From a phage, in the NCBI GenBank assembly GCA_026686805.1, contig GCA_026686805.1_3949.2: a stretch of 22,359 nt of DNA, one strand, 5' to 3'. Below the pieces are notes generated by a model. The model saw only the letters and a program-made list of their open reading frames with translations. It was not told where the DNA came from and did no database searches. Shown piece after piece: positions 5,899-20,405 of this stretch. Position 1 is the first letter of the stretch. Every line of letters starts with the position of its first letter. Both the position numbers and the translations under genes were made by a program.

Positions 5899-6075
5899 TT
5901 ACTTATTAAACATTTTACCAGAACCACCACACATAGGGCAACAACCTGCTCTTGTATACCCTTCTCCGTTACAGTAGTCACACTTCTTGTGTTCTGCAAA
6001 GTACTTACAAAGAAGATAAACAAGGACTGCTACACTACCAAGTGACAGTAAAATTTCTACCCAATATGCTTGCAT
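5899..6075 (-). CDS. Small membrane protein with C-terminal DnaJ-type zinc-finger repeats (58 aa); not in ORF track
   Basis: Hand-translated: MQAYWVEILLSLGSVAVLVYLLCKYFAEHKKCDYCNGEGYTRAGCCPMCGGSGKMFNK. One hydrophobic helix, then two CxxCxGxG units (CDYCNGEG, CPMCGGSG). GAGGTGAG Shine-Dalgarno 4-11 nt upstream of the ATG. Overlaps the 3' end of the 6057..6392 ORF by 19 nt in another frame. Confidence 0.45.
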   Translation of the reverse strand: MQAYWVEILLSLGSVAVLVYLLCKYFAEHKKCDYCNGEGYTRAGCCPMCGGSGKMFNK

Positions 6076-6392
6076 GACTCACCTCTCATGTTTTTGTAAA
6101 GGATAAAGCTTCTGTCATGGACGATACTTGTAGATACTGCAAAGTTACTTTCAAGCATCTGTTTGTTTGGATTGTAGAAGCTTTCTTTAAACTCGTCAAG
6201 CGCAAATTGGTGATTGTCTGGAAGACCTTTTACACAAACCTTTATTGTGATTGCTGCTGCAATCTTGCCAGTCAGTTCTTCTTTAGCTGCTACTAAAATT
6301 TTGTTAAGGAACTTTTTACCATCTTCAGGTTTCTTAATGTTCTCCCAACGCTCTTCTAAGACAATGTTGATGTTCATCTCTTTGATTTTCAT
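6057..6392 (-). CDS. Hypothetical protein (111 aa)
   Basis: ATG start confirmed. First gene after the 6404..6431 terminator and candidate promoter. No recognisable motif. Confidence 0.5.
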   Translation of the reverse strand: MKIKEMNINIVLEERWENIKKPEDGKKFLNKILVAAKEELTGKIAAAITIKVCVKGLPDNHQFALDEFKESFYNPNKQMLESNFAVSTSIVHDRSFILYKNMRGESCKHIG

Positions 6393-6403
6393 AATCTTCT
6401 CCA

Positions 6404-6431
6404 GAAATTAAAAAGGCTCCCGTAGGAGCCT
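6404..6431 (-). terminator. Intrinsic terminator hairpin (minus RNA AGGCUCC-UACG-GGAGCCU followed by UUUUUAAUUUC)
   Basis: Plus 6414-6431 is aggctcc-cgta-ggagcct, the same stem as the 483-500 hairpin with a different tetraloop. U-tract follows on the minus transcript. Immediately downstream of the NAMPT-like gene. Confidence 0.6.
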
Positions 6432-6434
6432 CTT

Positions 6435-6462
6435 ATCATATACTTTTAAAGCTGCTTGTCAA
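6435..6462 (-). promoter_or_regulatory. Candidate sigma70-like promoter (TTGACA-N16-TATGAT) overlapping the 3' end of the NAMPT-like gene
   Basis: Minus strand: aatatTGACAagcagctttaaaagtaTATGATaagaggctcc; -35 at 6462..6457, -10 at 6440..6435. The transcript would begin inside the terminator hairpin. Confidence 0.3.
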
Positions 6463-8227
6463 TATTATTTCGAATATCGCCAAGAGTTGTGTAGCCGAAC
6501 TGCTCAGAGTCGCTAAAGACTAAACGTAAAGCACAAGCTGGATGCTCAAGTGCATCTGCAAAACTCTGGAATCCATAGCCATCTACAGCTTTCAGATTCT
6601 CACCATCCCACATAGGGGCTACACCACCAAAAGCAGACTTCTTAACACCACTATCTGTTTTAGGGTCTTTTGCAAGCATAATCTCTTTACCACCAATGCT
6701 TGCAAGAGTTGCTTTGACAGCAAATGCAAAGGTGTCACGAGTCATGTACTGGTAAGTGTAGGAACCTACACCAAACACTACGTTAGAGCTTGCAAAACCC
6801 ATTTCATACAAACGCTTAAGGATTTCGTTTGCACGTTCCAACGTGATAGAGTCACCATAGATAAGGCCAATGTGCTCATCCAGTACCTTAAAACCTTTAG
6901 AGTTGATAGTCCCTCCAAAGATGTTGTACAGTGTCTTAATAGCTCCATCAATCTCAGCTACAGGGCGTGTTACAACGTTTGCAGAACCAACCATATAAGC
7001 GTTCTTCAACATCACTGTATCAGCAACTTCAAAGTCTTCTCTGTCAACAACCATTTCATAGCCTTCTGACAGTAGCCATCCAGCAATACCATAGTTGATG
7101 TTTTCAAGCTTCATGTTCAGAACAGCATTCAACATTGTGTCGCTGGCTTCCAGCTTGCTAAGGTGCTCATAATAAGCCTTTTTAGCACACTCTAAGTGGA
7201 TTGCTTTATAACCTGTGACAATATGTACAGGGTCTCCAGAGTCAGGACGAATTACCAGTTTACCGTCACGTTCCATAATCTCTTTGCGAAGTGCTGGTAA
7301 GATTTCTGACACAGTTCTCCAGAAGTTATAAGTGTCTGAAACAACACTTGCAATACCAGTTGGGTAAGTTTCTGTTAAGAAACGACGGAAGGTTTGTAAC
7401 TCACCTTTAAAGCGTCTTTCTTCTTCAATCAACTCATTACCACCTTCCCAAGCAATGTTTGCACACATTACAGAGTGCTCAGTGGCTGGTACAGAACTAC
7501 CAATATCAGAAATTGGGTAAGACTGTCCATAGATGCGTTTAGCCGTGTATACAGCAGGGAAACTATCAGTTCCTTTAAAGCTGGTTAAGTGACCTACAGC
7601 ATTAAATGCGTCATCGGTAAAGCCGGACATACCACGCATAGCAAAGTCATGGCACTGATAAGGTAAATGTAAGTCATTGTCGCAAGTAAGGTCAGCCCAC
7701 TTCTTACAGATACGTTTGTAGTGCAATGCAATAGTTGCAATGGTACAAGCCTTCCAAATCTCAGCAGAGAAAGCATCTTCCAGATACCCCGCTACCCAAT
7801 GGAAACCTGAAACAGTGTTCTGGAAGACAATTATTGGTACACGCATAGGAACAACTGTGCCTTCTTCTACAGCGTATACTTCAACTGGCAGATAACCTAA
7901 GTCGTGAAGTGCTTCCCAATGCTCTCGACCAATAGCATCTTTACCCAGAACACCGTTCATGACTTCTAATATTTCGTCAATTGCTTCTTTTTTGTCACGT
8001 TCAAAGAAGGTGGCGTTCCAGTGGTCTATCAGGTAATCTTTAACAAAACGTTGAATACCAAAAGCAACTACACCATCAATTGCTAAGGGGCTGTTAAACC
8101 ATTTGTCACTACGTGGTGTCAGGTTGAACATCAAGTACTCTGTTGCGCTAGGATACTGGTAGATGTGACCAGATTTGTAAGCATCTGCGTTTAAACCTGC
8201 TGGTACTGCATAAAGTGATTTAGTCAT
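6446..8227 (-). CDS. Nicotinamide phosphoribosyltransferase-family protein (NAMPT-like; candidate NARP1 Namat), 593 aa
   Basis: ATG start confirmed. N-terminal ...NADAYKSGHIYQYPSATEY...FNLTPR tracks the NAMPT N-terminal signature as I recall it from human NAMPT ([27 protein letters not shown]). Same orientation as, and 45 nt downstream of, the PRPP-synthetase-like gene. Confidence 0.8.
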   Translation of the reverse strand: MTKSLYAVPAGLNADAYKSGHIYQYPSATEYLMFNLTPRSDKWFNSPLAIDGVVAFGIQRFVKDYLIDHWNATFFERDKKEAIDEILEVMNGVLGKDAIGREHWEALHDLGYLPVEVYAVEEGTVVPMRVPIIVFQNTVSGFHWVAGYLEDAFSAEIWKACTIATIALHYKRICKKWADLTCDNDLHLPYQCHDFAMRGMSGFTDDAFNAVGHLTSFKGTDSFPAVYTAKRIYGQSYPISDIGSSVPATEHSVMCANIAWEGGNELIEEERRFKGELQTFRRFLTETYPTGIASVVSDTYNFWRTVSEILPALRKEIMERDGKLVIRPDSGDPVHIVTGYKAIHLECAKKAYYEHLSKLEASDTMLNAVLNMKLENINYGIAGWLLSEGYEMVVDREDFEVADTVMLKNAYMVGSANVVTRPVAEIDGAIKTLYNIFGGTINSKGFKVLDEHIGLIYGDSITLERANEILKRLYEMGFASSNVVFGVGSYTYQYMTRDTFAFAVKATLASIGGKEIMLAKDPKTDSGVKKSAFGGVAPMWDGENLKAVDGYGFQSFADALEHPACALRLVFSDSEQFGYTTLGDIRNNIDKQL

Positions 8228-8272: not shown

Positions 8273-9154
8273 TCAATCAAGGTTTGCTACAGTAACTTGA
8301 CTGTAATGTGTTAAGCCACGGTCTTTAGCTTCGCCTAAAGAGTTTGTAGTGTAAATATGGTCGATACCATTGTCAAGAAGGTTTTCAACATCTTTAGAGA
8401 AGATACCATGTGTTACATAAAGTTCCACACGTTTTGCACCTGCTTCACGAAGATGTTTCGCTGCTTCTATGAAGGTTCGACCACCATCACAGATATCATC
8501 CAGAATCATAACGGTTTTATCTGTCAAATCAACATCATCAAGGATTCGCATACCAGTAATTTCACCAGTCTTAAGGTTACGCACCTTAGACATTGTGATA
8601 TATGGTTTATCCACCTCTTTAGCGGTCTCTGCAACCTTCTTAGCAGCACCTGCATCTGGGGCTACTAAGTAATCAACCAGTGGGTCATTTGCATAGTGGA
8701 CTGCAATCTCCTTTTGAGGAATACTCTGGAAGCAGTTAAACAGGTTATCTGGAACGCAACTGTGAGGGTCAACTGCACAGACTGCACCAAATCCCATTGC
8801 ATTTACCTGTTTAGCAAAAACCTTTAAAGCTGCTGCGTCGCCTTTAAACATGTGACGGTCATATCGTGCATTTGGTAAGTAGTAAAAGATGACAGTCTTT
8901 AAAGCATAATCATGAGGAATTAAATCATCAATTGCTTCTTTAGCAAGTGCCACAGCAAACAAAGTGTCCTTATCATAACCTTTTACAATCATAATCACAT
9001 TGTTGATGGATGATGCTGCATAAGCAGTAAAATCAACAAACTCTGGCGAAAAGTGTCCACCAATCTCACCAGAAGGGAATTGGACGATGTTAAACTCTTC
9101 TTCATGAGTCCCTTTAGTTGGTGAATGAACTGTAACACGGATAGATGTTTTCAT
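8273..9154 (-). CDS. Ribose-phosphate pyrophosphokinase-family protein (PRPP synthetase-like; candidate NARP1 Adps), about 293 aa
   Basis: Track ORF starts at a TTG (9169); ATG at 9154 (MKTSIRVTVH) has a GAGAGAGAAAACT Shine-Dalgarno. PRPS-type motifs present: VDPHS, VAPDAGAAKKV and the PRPP-binding loop ILDDICDGGRT. Confidence 0.8.
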   Translation of the reverse strand: MKTSIRVTVHSPTKGTHEEEFNIVQFPSGEIGGHFSPEFVDFTAYAASSINNVIMIVKGYDKDTLFAVALAKEAIDDLIPHDYALKTVIFYYLPNARYDRHMFKGDAAALKVFAKQVNAMGFGAVCAVDPHSCVPDNLFNCFQSIPQKEIAVHYANDPLVDYLVAPDAGAAKKVAETAKEVDKPYITMSKVRNLKTGEITGMRILDDVDLTDKTVMILDDICDGGRTFIEAAKHLREAGAKRVELYVTHGIFSKDVENLLDNGIDHIYTTNSLGEAKDRGLTHYSQVTVANLD

Positions 9155-9165
9155 AGTTTTCTCTC

Positions 9166-9444
9166 TCAATCAAAAGTTACGTTTGTTACTGCCATTGCAG
9201 ATTTGCATTTTGCAGGGTCTACAACGTGATAAAGTACACTACAGTTACCTGTGCTGTCTGGTACAGGCTTTACCCATTGCTGCTTTATAGTTGGCTCTCC
9301 TAAGTCTTTGTAAGAGCCATCTGTAAAGTTGTTTACCATCTCAAGTGCAATTGGTTCTGGAACATGACCACGTATCATGTACATCTCACAACCATTACCA
9401 CCTTCACTGACTAATGGTAAAATTTCCCACTTTTCTTTAGCCAT
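9166..9444 (-). CDS. Hypothetical protein (92 aa)
   Basis: ATG start confirmed. ATGGCTAA-type 8-nt overlap with the upstream gene; ends 11 nt before the PRPS-like ATG. No recognisable motif. Confidence 0.5.
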   Translation of the reverse strand: MAKEKWEILPLVSEGGNGCEMYMIRGHVPEPIALEMVNNFTDGSYKDLGEPTIKQQWVKPVPDSTGNCSVLYHVVDPAKCKSAMAVTNVTFD

Positions 9445-11979: not shown

Positions 11980-14124
11980 TTACATAGAGACTCTATCACG
12001 AATCTCAGCGATTTTTGCATCGTTCATTCGGGATTCACCTTTAATCTTAGTCCATCCAAGATACCCACACACCCTGTTAATCACAGAGATATCATGTGAA
12101 TGGCAAACCTCGCATTCTTCAACATCAGCCTTTGGTCTGTTACCACAATGTTCACAGATTGCTAAGTCAAAGTTAAGCCCCTGATAGAAACCTTTCAACA
12201 TCCCTCTTGTGATACAACTTTTAAGTGCTGTTAAGTTTTCTGGGTTAGCTACCCTGACATACTGGATTCTCCCACCTCTACAGATATGGAAGAATGGCTC
12301 TTCTAAGTCCTGCTTCTCAAATGGTGAGATGTCTGCTGCAACATTCATATGGAAACTGTTTGTAAAGTATTCCTTATCAGAAACACCTTTGATAACGCCA
12401 AACATATCTCTGAACTGTTTTAGCTGAGTTCCGCAAAGTGATTCTGCTGGAGTACCATAGACGGCATATAAGAAGCCATCTTCATTTTTAAACTCTTCAG
12501 TTTTCATGTTGATGTATGCCAGAACATCGTATGCAAAACTACAGCTTCCAACTTCATGAAGTCGTTTACCTTCAGCAAGAACAGATAGCTCATCAAGCGC
12601 AGTAACCCCAAAAGAAGCTGTGAAGGACTTCACAATATCCCAACCAACCTTGTCAGTAGGTTTCTTAGTTCCTTTGTACAGACCACCTTGTGTGAATGCA
12701 AGAGGGTTAGAACTTGCTGGCATATTAGCAATCATTTCGTAGCGTTTCTTGTGGAAGCTGCGAATCATCTCTAGGTACTTATCAAGCTCTTTCCAGAAAT
12801 CTAAACCACTCTCTCTAGAATACTGGTAAATCATCGGTAAGTTCAAAGATACAGCACCAATGTTAGCACGACCAACATAGAACTCTTCCCCATCCTCATT
12901 AAGATATGGAGATAAGAAGGCTCTGCAACCCATCGGTGAAATTACCTTGCCAGAACGCTCAAAAGCCTCTGCTACAGCACCATGACCAGATACACTTAAG
13001 AAGTCTGGATACATTGCTTTAGAGCAACACTCAATAGCTTTACTGTACAGGTGACCTTGACAGATATTTTCATCATGTCTCTTCTGGTCATAAATATAAA
13101 CCAGTTTAGGAAATACAACAGGCTTCTTGCTCTTACCTTGTCCATTCATACGAACATCTAGGAGAGTACTTGCAATCATGTATTGTAATCGGTTGTCTTC
13201 ATTAGACATGTCTGAGTCAAGTAACCCAAATGTTAAAGTTGTGAATGCAAAATCCCCACGACTACAAGGTACAGTGTTTAGTTTCATTTCAAGTGACTGG
13301 AAACCTTGAGTTAATTCAATCTGTAACTGCTCCATGACATAATTATGGTAATGTTCTTTAGGAATACCATAAGATGTTGCTTTCTCAGCATGATAGCGTA
13401 GAGACTTCTTAGCATACGGTACAAGTACCTTGTCAATCTCTGCTAAAGTAAAGCCACCAAATTGCTGTGCAGTTGCTGAAAGAACTACGTCACCAATAAC
13501 TTGTAAGGCCGACAGCACAGACTTCGGTTCACAATATTCGATGCCAGACATTTCAAAGCCACCTTTCAGTACTTTACCAATGTCAAACAGACAACAGTTA
13601 ATACCACCAAAAATTAGGTCTCTTAAGTCATGGATGTAGATAAACCCTTTTTCAATGGCTTCAAGTTCCTCTGGTGTTAAATGGTACTGTTTAAAGATTT
13701 CTTTAGTCAGATAACCACGAATAATTGAACCTTTTGTAGAAATTAAACTGCTGTCAAAGTTAGCATTCTCTCTGTCACCTAAGAAGAGTGTATCTTTGGT
13801 CTTCTGGTAAAGTTCATCCCAATTTTGAGCAACTTCTTTACGGTAATTTCTATATGTTGAGTAAGACTCATAAATCTCGTGATTGACTTCTGCCAAAGCA
13901 CCCTCAACAATACTGTGAATATCATTTACTGAAATGAGCAAATTATTCTGTTTAGTAGATTTTACCAGAATCCTCATAAATGCTGACTCAAGAGCTTGGG
14001 TAACATCTGGTGGGAGTTCTTTATAACCAACCCTATTAGCTGACTTTGTGACTGCTGCTAAAACTTTTTTGATATCAGGTTCTTCGAGTGAGCCATTCTT
14101 TTTAATAATCTGTACTTTGTTCAT
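11980..14124 (-). CDS. nrdD: Anaerobic ribonucleoside-triphosphate reductase, class III (714 aa)
   Basis: ATG start confirmed. C-terminal glycyl-radical motif RVCGYLG, preceded by a Cys cluster (CEHCGN ... CEVCHSH). Reading frame is contiguous, so no intron is evident. Confidence 0.9.
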   Translation of the reverse strand: MNKVQIIKKNGSLEEPDIKKVLAAVTKSANRVGYKELPPDVTQALESAFMRILVKSTKQNNLLISVNDIHSIVEGALAEVNHEIYESYSTYRNYRKEVAQNWDELYQKTKDTLFLGDRENANFDSSLISTKGSIIRGYLTKEIFKQYHLTPEELEAIEKGFIYIHDLRDLIFGGINCCLFDIGKVLKGGFEMSGIEYCEPKSVLSALQVIGDVVLSATAQQFGGFTLAEIDKVLVPYAKKSLRYHAEKATSYGIPKEHYHNYVMEQLQIELTQGFQSLEMKLNTVPCSRGDFAFTTLTFGLLDSDMSNEDNRLQYMIASTLLDVRMNGQGKSKKPVVFPKLVYIYDQKRHDENICQGHLYSKAIECCSKAMYPDFLSVSGHGAVAEAFERSGKVISPMGCRAFLSPYLNEDGEEFYVGRANIGAVSLNLPMIYQYSRESGLDFWKELDKYLEMIRSFHKKRYEMIANMPASSNPLAFTQGGLYKGTKKPTDKVGWDIVKSFTASFGVTALDELSVLAEGKRLHEVGSCSFAYDVLAYINMKTEEFKNEDGFLYAVYGTPAESLCGTQLKQFRDMFGVIKGVSDKEYFTNSFHMNVAADISPFEKQDLEEPFFHICRGGRIQYVRVANPENLTALKSCITRGMLKGFYQGLNFDLAICEHCGNRPKADVEECEVCHSHDISVINRVCGYLGWTKIKGESRMNDAKIAEIRDRVSM

Positions 14125-18277: not shown

Positions 18278-18610
18278 TTAAATCTTGAAAATTTGCTCAT
18301 TCTGCCACATATCGTAAAACTTATCACTTACCTTTGTGACTGAAGATGTGTGCATACAATTGACGAACCATGATATATTATTGCTCATAATAATTTCAAG
18401 CTGTTTTGTGACATCAACATTCATGTCTTCAACAACATAATTACCTCGTATCTTGCAAACAACTCTTCCAAACAAGATTGCACTTCTCCCTCTTCGGTCA
18501 TCACAGTACATAACTGTGTCTCCGTGCTTAACGTCTTGTCCGATGCTGTCAACACCTAGCTTAACACCTGAGATAATGTCATCATAAGATAGCTTTTTTG
18601 CTTTAGACAC
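18278..18610 (-). CDS. Hypothetical protein (110 aa), apparent GTG start
   Basis: First codon at 18610..18608 is GTG, with GGAG 8 nt upstream; no in-frame ATG nearby. No recognisable motif. Confidence 0.45.
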   Translation of the reverse strand: MSKAKKLSYDDIISGVKLGVDSIGQDVKHGDTVMYCDDRRGRSAILFGRVVCKIRGNYVVEDMNVDVTKQLEIIMSNNISWFVNCMHTSSVTKVSDKFYDMWQNEQIFKI

Positions 18611-18926
18611 GGTATTTCTCCAAGTTTCTTTTTAGATACAACCAACCATAGTCAGTCCTTTCTACACCCATAAAGAGTGGAGCCATCACAACTTTACCGA
18701 AAGTATTCCTGTGTTGGCAGATTTCAAAGGAATACTCTTTCTCAATATCAATCCCGTATTTGTACAGGACTGCTTTTAAAACTTGTTCATTGTCCAGAAG
18801 TGTATCTGGAGTCTCACCATATTTTTCTAGTAACGGGTCATTCATAAACACCGTCATAGAAATATTGTAGTTTGAGAAGTGGCTCTTCTGAGCCACACCC
18901 TCTTTATTAATGTTCTGTGAATCCAT
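18603..18926 (-). CDS. Hypothetical protein (about 107 aa from ATG)
   Basis: Track start at 18935 is a TTG; ATG at 18926 (MDSQNINKEG...). Weak Shine-Dalgarno, so the start is uncertain. Confidence 0.45.
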   Translation of the reverse strand: MDSQNINKEGVAQKSHFSNYNISMTVFMNDPLLEKYGETPDTLLDNEQVLKAVLYKYGIDIEKEYSFEICQHRNTFGKVVMAPLFMGVERTDYGWLYLKRNLEKYRV

Positions 18927-19662
18927 TATAACCAACCCCTTTTAACCAGCACTTCAGGTTATTAGCATCATAATTCAGTTTCGGGTATGAGGTTACATGG
19001 AACTGCTCACCATCATAGTAGACAATATCTGCAATCCATAGTCCATTCTCTTTACAGAAATCTTTATCTGCTTTAGAGGTAATTGGATTAACTTCTACAA
19101 AACCATCTACACCCAAATCCTTTAAGCTACCTACAATACCTTTGCAGATAACGCATGTGTCAGATACTACCACAAAAAGTTCTTGGCTTTCAAGCTCTAC
19201 AATGTATTCACCAAGCTGCACTTTAGGGAGATTAGACTGTTTCATAATCTTCCCATCAGCTTCACGAACAATCGCATACCACTCTTTACCATCAACTACT
19301 GACATTCTAATAATACACTCTTGACCAGTGCGCTTTTCAATGTCTGCAAGACGTTTTAAAGCTTCTTCATAGTTATCTGTGTACTTCAGGTCATTATTAT
19401 GGCAAACAGCTTCCATAGCACCATTATGGTCATGTTGTGACAGATAAATCAAACCGTCAAGAACATATTGCAAATCTGCCTGAGCATCCAGTGTCTCAAT
19501 GGGGTCTTTCTCTTCAATTGCTTTTACAAGCTCTTTTGCTTCTTCAAGCATACATAGAGATTGAGATTTCAAAGATTCCCAATACTCATCACTGTAAGGT
19601 TGCTTTTGAGTTTTTCCACAACGAAGATTCCAGTTTTTTACTGATTCTCTTGAGTTAAACAT
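18907..19662 (-). CDS. MazG-like nucleotide pyrophosphohydrolase domain protein with C-terminal CxxC (thioredoxin-fold-like) extension, 251 aa
   Basis: ATG start confirmed, with AAGGAG 5 nt upstream. N-terminal half has MazG/HisE-like acidic helix motifs (LEEAKELVKAIEE ... DAQADLQYVLDGLIYL). C-terminal half has FVVVSDTCVICKGIVGSL, a redoxin-like CxxC after a beta-strand. Confidence 0.45.
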   Translation of the reverse strand: MFNSRESVKNWNLRCGKTQKQPYSDEYWESLKSQSLCMLEEAKELVKAIEEKDPIETLDAQADLQYVLDGLIYLSQHDHNGAMEAVCHNNDLKYTDNYEEALKRLADIEKRTGQECIIRMSVVDGKEWYAIVREADGKIMKQSNLPKVQLGEYIVELESQELFVVVSDTCVICKGIVGSLKDLGVDGFVEVNPITSKADKDFCKENGLWIADIVYYDGEQFHVTSYPKLNYDANNLKCWLKGVGYNGFTEH

Positions 19663-19886
19663 TCGGACTCCTTAAAATATCTGTTAACCTTTAGCTCTCG
19701 CGTTTCAATATATTCCAGATGCTCACGTAGCTCTTGACGTTTAAGCATTAGGTGCTGCATTTGAGATTCAACAGCTTCAACCTCTTTAATTATTGACTCT
19801 CTGGCATTTGCAAGAATGCGCTCAAGTTCTTCAATCTTGCTGTCAACTTTTGCTACATGACTCACAGCTTTACTTTTGTTAAACAT
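19638..19886 (-). CDS. Small coiled-coil protein (82 aa from ATG)
   Basis: Track start at 19901 is a TTG; ATG at 19886 (MFNKSKAV...). Sequence is rich in E/K/R/L heptad-like repeats. Confidence 0.45.
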   Translation of the reverse strand: MFNKSKAVSHVAKVDSKIEELERILANARESIIKEVEAVESQMQHLMLKRQELREHLEYIETRELKVNRYFKESECLTQENQ

Positions 19887-19907: not shown

Positions 19908-20405
19908 TTAAGCACAATTTGCTTTCATTACCTTATGGATTCTTTTTTCAGCATCTTCATAAGTTTCTTTAGTAATAAACTTAATTGCTGCAATATTGGC
20001 ATTGTAGAAGAGTCTGAGCTTCGAGTCAATCCTTTTTGTCATTACATCGAATTTATGTTGAAGGTTTGCTTCACCATAGACTAGGCCACCTTTTGTGTAG
20101 TAGGTTTGAATAATGTAAAAGTCAAAAAATTCTTTTCCAAAGCTCTCAATATCTTTTTTAATATACTCAGAAGAAGTCTCGTAAGTCATCCAATCACTTT
20201 CCTTAGTGACTACCTTCTTCCGAGTCTTACCAGCAACTTTTCTTTTGGTCACACTGTTAAGCTGTTTCTTTCCGATATAATATTGTCCAGTCTTCTTACA
20301 GTGTACTAAATAGACAAAGCCAAAATGTTTAGTGGGGTCAACTTCCCCACATAAAGATACCCAATGACCATAGGTGGGGCAATTGCCAAATCCTTTAATC
20401 TTCAT
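19908..20405 (-). CDS. GIY-YIG-like nuclease domain protein (165 aa)
   Basis: ATG start confirmed. FGFVYLVHCKKTGQYYIGKK matches the GIY-(x10-11)-YIG architecture; downstream basic stretch and conserved Glu/Asn candidates. Too short for a typical Seg-type homing endonuclease with DNA-binding domain. Confidence 0.45.
   Translation of the reverse strand: MKIKGFGNCPTYGHWVSLCGEVDPTKHFGFVYLVHCKKTGQYYIGKKQLNSVTKRKVAGKTRKKVVTKESDWMTYETSSEYIKKDIESFGKEFFDFYIIQTYYTKGGLVYGEANLQHKFDVMTKRIDSKLRLFYNANIAAIKFITKETYEDAEKRIHKVMKANCA

Follow-up and report, generated by a model that had tools for sequence, protein, structure and literature searches.

The dCTPase of phages T2 and T4 belongs to the superfamily of all-alpha nucleoside triphosphate pyrophosphatases (NTP-PPases; PMC12524310), which includes dimeric dUTPases. 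DR2231 from Deinococcus radiodurans acts exclusively on dUTP, according to the title of Mota 2016 as cited in PMC10014863. In proteins with a thioredoxin fold, the cis-proline is part of the substrate-binding site and is better conserved across groups than the CxxC motif itself (PMC2757866). Substitution of this proline abolished turnover in DsbA (PMC13269488). Here we describe a phage gene whose product appears to combine these two kinds of domain. It is located at positions 18907..19662, on the minus strand, of a 22,359-nucleotide stretch of phage DNA (GenBank assembly GCA_026686805.1, contig GCA_026686805.1_3949.2), hereafter called the window. We propose, with moderate confidence, that the protein is a two-domain enzyme of the phage nucleotide-supply block. 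It would be made of a DR2231-like (d)NTP pyrophosphatase, likely acting on dUTP, and of an accessory thioredoxin-fold module that is not a general donor for ribonucleotide reductase (RNR). The gene has long been known and was named after its N-terminal domain. Its thioredoxin-fold appendage was previously unrecognised, is atypical and is restricted to one lineage. A literature search found no published description of the fusion or of its C-terminal domain.

The fusion gene encodes 251 residues, starting with an ATG and ending with a stop codon at 18907-18909. A Shine-Dalgarno sequence, AAGGAG, is found at 19668..19673 on the same minus strand, and the ATG comes 5 nt further on. The open reading frame (ORF) is real and has a strong ribosome-binding site.

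The N-terminal module, from residue 1 to residue 150 (19213..19662, minus strand), corresponds to an all-alpha NTP pyrophosphohydrolase. The Pfam PRA-PH model (PF01503, MazG/HisE clan) covers residues 25-85 with 27 bits, for a cutoff of 21.3. In the AF2 model, helices 25-50, 54-75, 79-93 and 98-112 have a local confidence (pLDDT) of 94-98 and are followed by a beta-hairpin, 116-133. The core of the helical-bundle fold is present in this prediction. A search of PDB sequences with a profile of the domain gave DR2231 chains as the top matches (E values from 1.1e-5 to 3e-4), then 3nl9 and HisE. Foldseek also matched the domain to DR2231 chains, over about 165 columns and with a probability of 1.00. 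DR2231 (PDB 2yeu, 2yf3 and 5hva, among others) is the best solved match by profile and by fold.

Conservation was counted in an alignment of 31 full-length sequences. Each glutamate of the predicted metal-binding motif E40-E41-x-x-E44 (19531..19545, minus strand) is present in all 31, and the motif falls on 'EESAE' of DR2231. In the second acidic helix motif, E56-x-x-D59-x-x-x-D63 (19474..19497, minus strand), D63 is invariant, D59 is found in 30 sequences and E56 in 28; the profile alignment places D63 on the aspartate of DR2231 'ELAD'. N90-x-x-K93 (19384..19395, minus strand) is kept in all sequences and is aligned with 'NLSK'. The beta-hairpin, whose strands were assigned by DSSP, and the motif D136-G-K138-x-x-K141 occupy 19240..19317 (minus strand). 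K138 and K141 are invariant and the motif falls on DR2231 'DGKQLKP'. Nine residues (E40, E41, E44, D59, D63, N90, K93, K138 and K141) are the same in all 30 relatives compared, the most distant of which has 27% identity. The same nine in the full-length set are invariant for eight of them, D59 being kept in 30 of the 31. Conservation of the family motifs is far beyond chance. Residues 95-150, with the last helix, the beta-hairpin and the D-G-K-x-x-K motif, are common to single-domain relatives and belong to the pyrophosphatase module. Two cysteines of this domain, C15 (28/31) and C87 (30/31), are almost invariant and are also common in short phage relatives.

Taken together, these alignments identify the N-domain as a predicted MazG/HisE-superfamily pyrophosphohydrolase, specifically a DR2231-like one, with intact metal-binding acidic residues. 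An earlier reading of this DNA, made from the letters alone (the sequence-only reading), had assigned the N-terminal half to the MazG/HisE type. The PF01503 match above cutoff bears out this assignment, and none of the metal-binding residues is missing from the alignment with DR2231. A HisE function, in histidine biosynthesis, was considered and rejected: it comes only from the name of the Pfam model, and the genomic context is that of dNTP metabolism.

The C-terminal domain is predicted to be a minimal thioredoxin-fold domain of about 88 residues, from 158 to 245 (18928..19191, minus strand). Its secondary structure elements are b1 161-165, a1 171-182, b2 188-191, a2 197-205, b3 212-216, b4 221-225 and a3 233-242. 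In the model, they form a four-stranded mixed sheet with three helices. The b-a-b-a-b-b-a order is that of a thioredoxin fold of glutaredoxin size. The full-length AF2 model has a mean pLDDT of 92.2 and a pTM of 0.60, and the isolated C-domain a pLDDT of 88.3 and a pTM of 0.78. Foldseek searches of the PDB and of the viral database BFVD agree with a thioredoxin fold. In BFVD, the sole significant match of the C-domain is an uncharacterized ortholog from Pectobacterium phage Wc4, and viral thioredoxins and glutaredoxins come next. The segment FVVVSDTCVICKGIVGSL is present at residues 163-180. It contains the C170-V-I-C173 motif (19144..19155, minus strand; TGC GTT ATC TGC), both cysteines of which are found in 30 of the 31 sequences. 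C170 directly precedes the helix starting at residue 171, as its N-cap, and the first turn of this helix contains C173; in the model, this is the canonical geometry of the active site. A third cysteine, C203, is conserved in 25 sequences.

Where the cis-proline would stand, at the start of b3, the model and the alignment columns show A211-D212 (19027..19032, minus strand). None of the 31 sequences has a proline there. Position 211 is alanine, glycine or serine, and position 212 is aspartate in 26 sequences and otherwise serine, valine, cysteine or glutamine. The one HMMER alignment that spans both sites, with the thioredoxin-like protein 4euy, used for register only in view of its E value of 0.21, places D212 on the proline of 'TGPTV' and the CxxC on 'CGVC'. 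The sequence-only reading had described a CxxC thioredoxin-like C-terminus of roughly 120 residues. The fold, as a confident prediction, and the CxxC stand; the length is shorter. The domain search brought the expected MazG-family match, and no thioredoxin-clan match was found in Pfam or NCBIfam.

The two domains are joined by a linker, residues 151-157 (19192..19212, minus strand), and the lowest internal pLDDT blocks of the model (86 and 79) cover residues 141-160. The low pTM of the full-length model despite its high pLDDT, together with this less confident linker, suggests a flexible tether between the two domains.

At the sequence level, the C-domain is isolated. In Pfam, neither residues 115-251 nor residues 160-251 had a match up to an E value of 10, and NCBIfam gave nothing for residues 152-251 either. 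Matches of the C-domain profile to PDB sequences are all below threshold, with E values of 0.085 or worse. Several of them are Dsb proteins, thioredoxins or glutaredoxins in register at the CxxC, which is suggestive at most. By inspection of the C-domain alignment, the glutathione-binding motifs TVP and GG-DD and the NrdH motif WSGFRP are absent. Comparison by hhalign of the C-domain profile with the glutaredoxin encoded by the phage itself gave a probability of 36% over 29 columns. With E. coli NrdH and with MTH895, both sequences being approximate, probabilities were 1.4% and 2.7%. The cis-proline and the sequence signatures being absent, the C-domain should, as judged from its sequence, not be filed as a glutaredoxin, an NrdH or a thioredoxin.

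When 1.84 billion representative proteins were searched by HMMER with a profile of the C-domain, no copy standing alone or fused to another partner was found. The domain occurred only in proteins of 244-251 residues, at the same C-terminal position. Four long matches (370-1254 aa, with 5-8 short stretches each) were read as repeat noise; P0128, the one inspected, is a tandem-repeat protein. A fifth long match, P0123 (2508 aa, no matched stretch), was left out of that reading. No split-off CxxC gene was found beside the short relatives, the ORFs downstream of which are not thioredoxin-like; some of them are homologs of a 110-aa gene of the window described below. Mean pairwise identity among the 31 full-length sequences reaches 52% in the N-domain, against 47% in the C-domain. 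Since the latter evolves only slightly faster, it is under purifying selection. A divergent 230-aa relative, P0037, keeps a shortened C-domain without either cysteine of the CxxC. Its gene (6001..6693 of Logan contig SRR26541456_2395, our L008) lies among DnaB, PolA, RNase H-like and rIIB genes, and no RNR is found in the 12.7 kb viewed.

The source of the window is a Felix O1-like myovirus (Ounavirinae, genus Felixounavirus). Over the 2.5 kb surrounding the fusion gene, it is 96-97% identical to many Felix O1-like phages, and the copy of the protein in Felix O1 itself is 98% identical. By tblastn, 304 phage records encode the fusion protein, and in 302 the match covers 80% or more of the query. 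Identities are 75-98% in Felixounaviruses of Escherichia, Salmonella, Shigella and Citrobacter and their relatives, and 37-39% in Ounavirinae of Erwinia and Pectobacterium. All 258 phage records that match this region of the window at the DNA level carry the gene, as do other Ounavirinae. A profile search of 5.8 billion proteins gave about 35 clusters with the complete architecture of about 250 residues. It also gave single-domain relatives of 136-175 residues, from phages and Alphaproteobacteria, which cover only residues 1 to about 150 and far outnumber the fusion clusters. The fusion thus appears, from these searches, to be limited to one lineage. This distribution and the lack of annotation of the C-domain agree with the earlier description of the fusion as unusual. 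Depositors labelled the protein 'MazG-like pyrophosphatase', 'phosphoribosyl-ATP pyrophosphohydrolase' or 'hypothetical', and phrog_2144 ('MazG-like pyrophosphatase') spans it from end to end with an E value of 6e-101.

The gene content of these phages bears on the substrate. In a complete RefSeq Felixounavirus genome, thymidylate synthase, dihydrofolate reductase (DHFR) and dNMP kinase are annotated, as well as the RNRs, and no dUTPase, dCTPase or dCMP deaminase is annotated. A tblastn search of the genome with an approximate Dut sequence found no trimeric Dut homolog. One of the short relatives is encoded one small gene upstream of ThyX. We know of no modified cytosine in Felix O1-type phages, so exclusion of dCTP is not expected. 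By analogy with DR2231, we infer that the most likely substrate is dUTP, possibly together with dCTP or non-canonical dNTPs. The protein is not a HisE and probably provides the missing dUTPase-type activity of the phage, upstream of thymidylate synthase.

In the window, the genes follow each other on the same strand in the order nrdG, nrdD, glutaredoxin, nrdB, nrdA, two small ORFs and the fusion gene. Beyond it come a small ORF, a GIY-YIG endonuclease and an exonuclease, still on the same strand. Related genomes continue with a primase-helicase, dNMP kinase, DNA polymerase, ligase, DHFR and thymidylate synthase. The stand-alone glutaredoxin of the phage (14372..14614, minus strand) has 80 residues and a CPQC motif, and is encoded directly downstream of nrdB. 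It matches PF00462 with 30.5 bits (cutoff 22.9). It also matches TIGR02190 and TIGR02194, the NCBIfam models for glutaredoxin and NrdH, below their curated cutoffs in all cases. On other phage contigs, short relatives without the C-domain are found beside NT5C, ThyX, NrdA, NrdB and glutaredoxin genes.

The proximity of the fusion gene to RNR genes raises the question of a redox supply, which the sequence-only reading had put forward as a link between dNTP sanitation and ribonucleotide reduction. The C-domain would then be a working dithiol redoxin, similar to NrdH or to the T4 glutaredoxin, feeding a class Ia RNR, either the phage NrdAB or that of the host. The thioredoxin fold with a CxxC at the canonical position in the model would fit such a carrier, as would the presence of the motif in 30 of 31 sequences and the location of the gene two small ORFs from nrdA. 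CVIC also resembles the CVQC of NrdH and the CVYC of the T4 glutaredoxin, and viral thioredoxins and glutaredoxins are the next-best matches in BFVD. However, a dedicated glutaredoxin already lies beside nrdB, and it matches glutaredoxin and NrdH models whereas the C-domain matches no glutaredoxin, NrdH or thioredoxin model; the alignment between the two proteins is limited to the 29 columns mentioned above. The cis-proline, described as needed for turnover (PMC13269488), is absent from every member. Furthermore, the short relatives devoid of a C-domain are equally linked to RNR. Since they also adjoin NrdA, NrdB, glutaredoxin and ThyX genes, closeness to RNR characterises the pyrophosphatase family rather than the fusion. 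Pectobacterium phage Wc4 (Ounavirinae, MN270891.1) gives a further argument. It has the fusion at 39% identity, with its CxxC intact, together with NrdD and NrdG. In its 92-kb genome, tblastn with the proteins of the window found no match to NrdA, NrdB or glutaredoxin at E values up to 0.1. Thus, unlike in Felixounavirus and Kolesnikvirus, where the fusion co-occurs with NrdA/NrdB, it does not accompany a thiol-dependent (class I/II) RNR in this phage. Wc4 still has a thymidylate synthase. In view of the separate glutaredoxin, of the RNR-linked short relatives, of Wc4 and of the lack of a cis-proline or of any matching redoxin model, a dedicated link of the fusion to RNR redox supply is not supported, and we consider a donor role unlikely. 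An interaction with the host RNR is possible.

A metal site is also an unlikely explanation in our opinion. The CxxC, together with the aspartate at the cis-proline position, would ligate zinc, iron or a [2Fe-2S] cluster bridged across a dimer, and would form a structural or sensing site instead of exchanging disulfides. According to a proposal of Su et al. 2007, cited in PMC2757866, the cis-proline keeps the CxxC thiolates of the thioredoxin family from binding a metal; it is missing from all members, most of which have the aspartate in its place. The all-alpha NTP-PPases exist as obligate oligomers, with up to 6 chains in the DR2231 entries, and such an oligomer would bring two CxxC domains together. 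In addition, the phage has both aerobic and anaerobic RNRs, which would give an oxygen or redox sensor something to regulate. Only two thiols per chain are strictly conserved, however; C203 varies, and D212 is replaced by serine, cysteine, glutamine or valine in distant members. No sequence match to any iron-sulfur or zinc redoxin family was found either. An extension of this idea, that the cis-proline-less CxxC(+Asp) domain is a new class of metal, iron-sulfur or redox sensor gating a phage dUTP/dNTP pyrophosphatase, is to our mind less probable still. If true, a phage with NrdAB and NrdDG could thereby adapt its provision of dUMP/dTTP, or the sanitation of its pools, to the oxygen level or redox state of the cell it infects, and the domain would be a natural example of a thioredoxin active site freed of its cis-proline 'lock'. 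A last alternative concerns the N-domain. Instead of dUTP/dNTP housecleaning, the enzyme could serve anti-defence or host takeover by removing alarmones or immune nucleotides such as (p)ppGpp. One MazG-like phage protein, Atd1 of Pectobacterium phage PcCB7V, is a ppGpp hydrolase that gives protection against TIR effectors (bioRxiv 10.1101/2022.06.09.495361). The window also contains a NAMPT/NAPRTase-like gene (6446..8227, minus strand, 593 aa) and an adjacent ribose-phosphate-pyrophosphokinase-like gene (8273..9169, minus strand, 298 aa), maybe an NAD-related counter-defence. This pair is presumably similar to the two enzymes with which phages reconstitute NAD+ in response to NAD-depleting defence systems. 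Against this idea, PcCB7V is absent from the 303 phage records retrieved when the Wc4 ortholog was used as tblastn query, so Atd1 represents a different lineage. The nearest solved relative by profile and fold is DR2231, not the E. coli-type MazG, and the gene and its short relatives sit among dNTP-synthesis and replication genes. A cyanophage MazG is moreover unable to hydrolyse magic-spot nucleotides, according to the title of PMC6850273. We find this alternative the least convincing of all.

The explanation that we favour remains that of a DR2231-like pyrophosphatase with an accessory thioredoxin-fold module. It draws on the observed architecture, conserved residues, lineage restriction and genomic context and on the computed fold. 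The N-module would cleave (d)NTP into (d)NMP and pyrophosphate, with divalent metals held by E40, E41, E44, D59 and D63. N90, K93, K138 and K141 would contact the phosphates or the nucleotide. By cleaving dUTP, the N-module would prevent uracil from entering phage DNA and provide the phage thymidylate synthase with dUMP, as gp56 does in T4. The C-module, whose CxxC is under strict selection, may act as a switch, of the dithiol/disulfide or of the metal-liganding kind, or may be a docking element through which the pyrophosphatase is tuned or localised. We infer that such an accessory, regulatory role is a better description than that of a redoxin turning over freely. Several points weigh against this explanation. 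The relative from which the substrate is deduced shares only about 15% identity with the protein, and the metal geometry may differ, the second acidic motif being DxxxD here versus ExxD in DR2231. Other phage MazG-like enzymes use quite different substrates, as does Atd1 with (p)ppGpp. The modest pTM of the full-length model leaves the arrangement of the two domains less secure. Strict conservation of the CxxC would also be expected of a true redox carrier, and Wc4 could use its C-domain with the host RNR. Finally, P0037 keeps the domain without either cysteine, a hint that its function, at least there, may not depend on thiols.

The 3' end of the fusion gene is overlapped by a 110-aa partner gene of unassigned function (18603..18935, minus strand; phrog_4007). 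This ORF also has a weaker match to a PHROG labelled 'thymidylate synthase'. It is homologous (BLASTP E value 3e-14) to an ORF overlapping the 3' end of a short MazG-like gene on two unrelated metagenomic contigs, L009 and L010. This arrangement suggests that the fusion or MazG-like gene and the 110-aa gene form a conserved pair, possibly translationally coupled.

Other observations concern the neighbourhood. The GIY-YIG gene (19908..20405, minus strand) encodes a 165-aa homing endonuclease of the SegE type (PF19835, E value 9e-28). The same endonuclease is labelled 'NAD synthetase' in many Felixounavirus and Kolesnikvirus records, probably a propagated mis-annotation. nrdD is intact in the window (11980..14124, minus strand, 714 aa), whereas in UAB_Phi87 (13239..16125 of L001) it is annotated as two pieces around a homing endonuclease gene. 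Insertion of the intron or endonuclease is therefore polymorphic within the genus.

Felix O1-type phages are classic typing and therapy phages of Salmonella and E. coli. About a third of the protein described here is an orphan thioredoxin-fold domain, and current database labels cover the MazG-like part only. The annotation can be corrected from HisE to, probably, a dUTPase-type enzyme. The C-domain would represent a small new domain family undetected by sequence models, and would allow the part played by the cis-proline in the chemistry of thioredoxin folds to be tested on a natural example. The analysis also tempers an attractive, unsupported story of direct redox coupling to RNR.

Compared with known systems, the N-domain is closest to DR2231, with which it shares EExxE, the aspartate of the second helix, NxxK, DGKxxKP and a C-terminal segment after the helical bundle. 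DR2231 has no thioredoxin-like domain, in contrast to the phage protein. The helix and beta-hairpin insert of the phage protein (about 95-133) has no counterpart in the shortest bacterial relatives. Single-domain proteins of the 'nucleoside triphosphate pyrophosphohydrolase family' (for example P0038-P0120) have the same nine invariant residues but stop near residue 155, without the CxxC domain. Those from phages are found in similar nucleotide-metabolism neighbourhoods, and some of them precede a homolog of the small gene located downstream of the fusion. The T4 dCTPase/dUTPase gp56 belongs to the same superfamily, as cited above; we propose it as a functional analog, supplying dUMP and excluding unwanted dNTPs. 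Atd1 is likewise a phage-encoded MazG-superfamily enzyme, with a demonstrated pyrophosphatase activity, but it is described as an E. coli-type MazG catalytic domain and no redoxin domain is reported. As for the C-domain, its nearest known counterparts are small redoxins (glutaredoxins, NrdH, BC3987, XCC2852/DUF836 and thioredoxins), whose best PDB sequence matches have non-significant E values of 0.15-1.4. These redoxins have a cis-proline, whereas the C-domain has G/A-D instead and is never free-standing.

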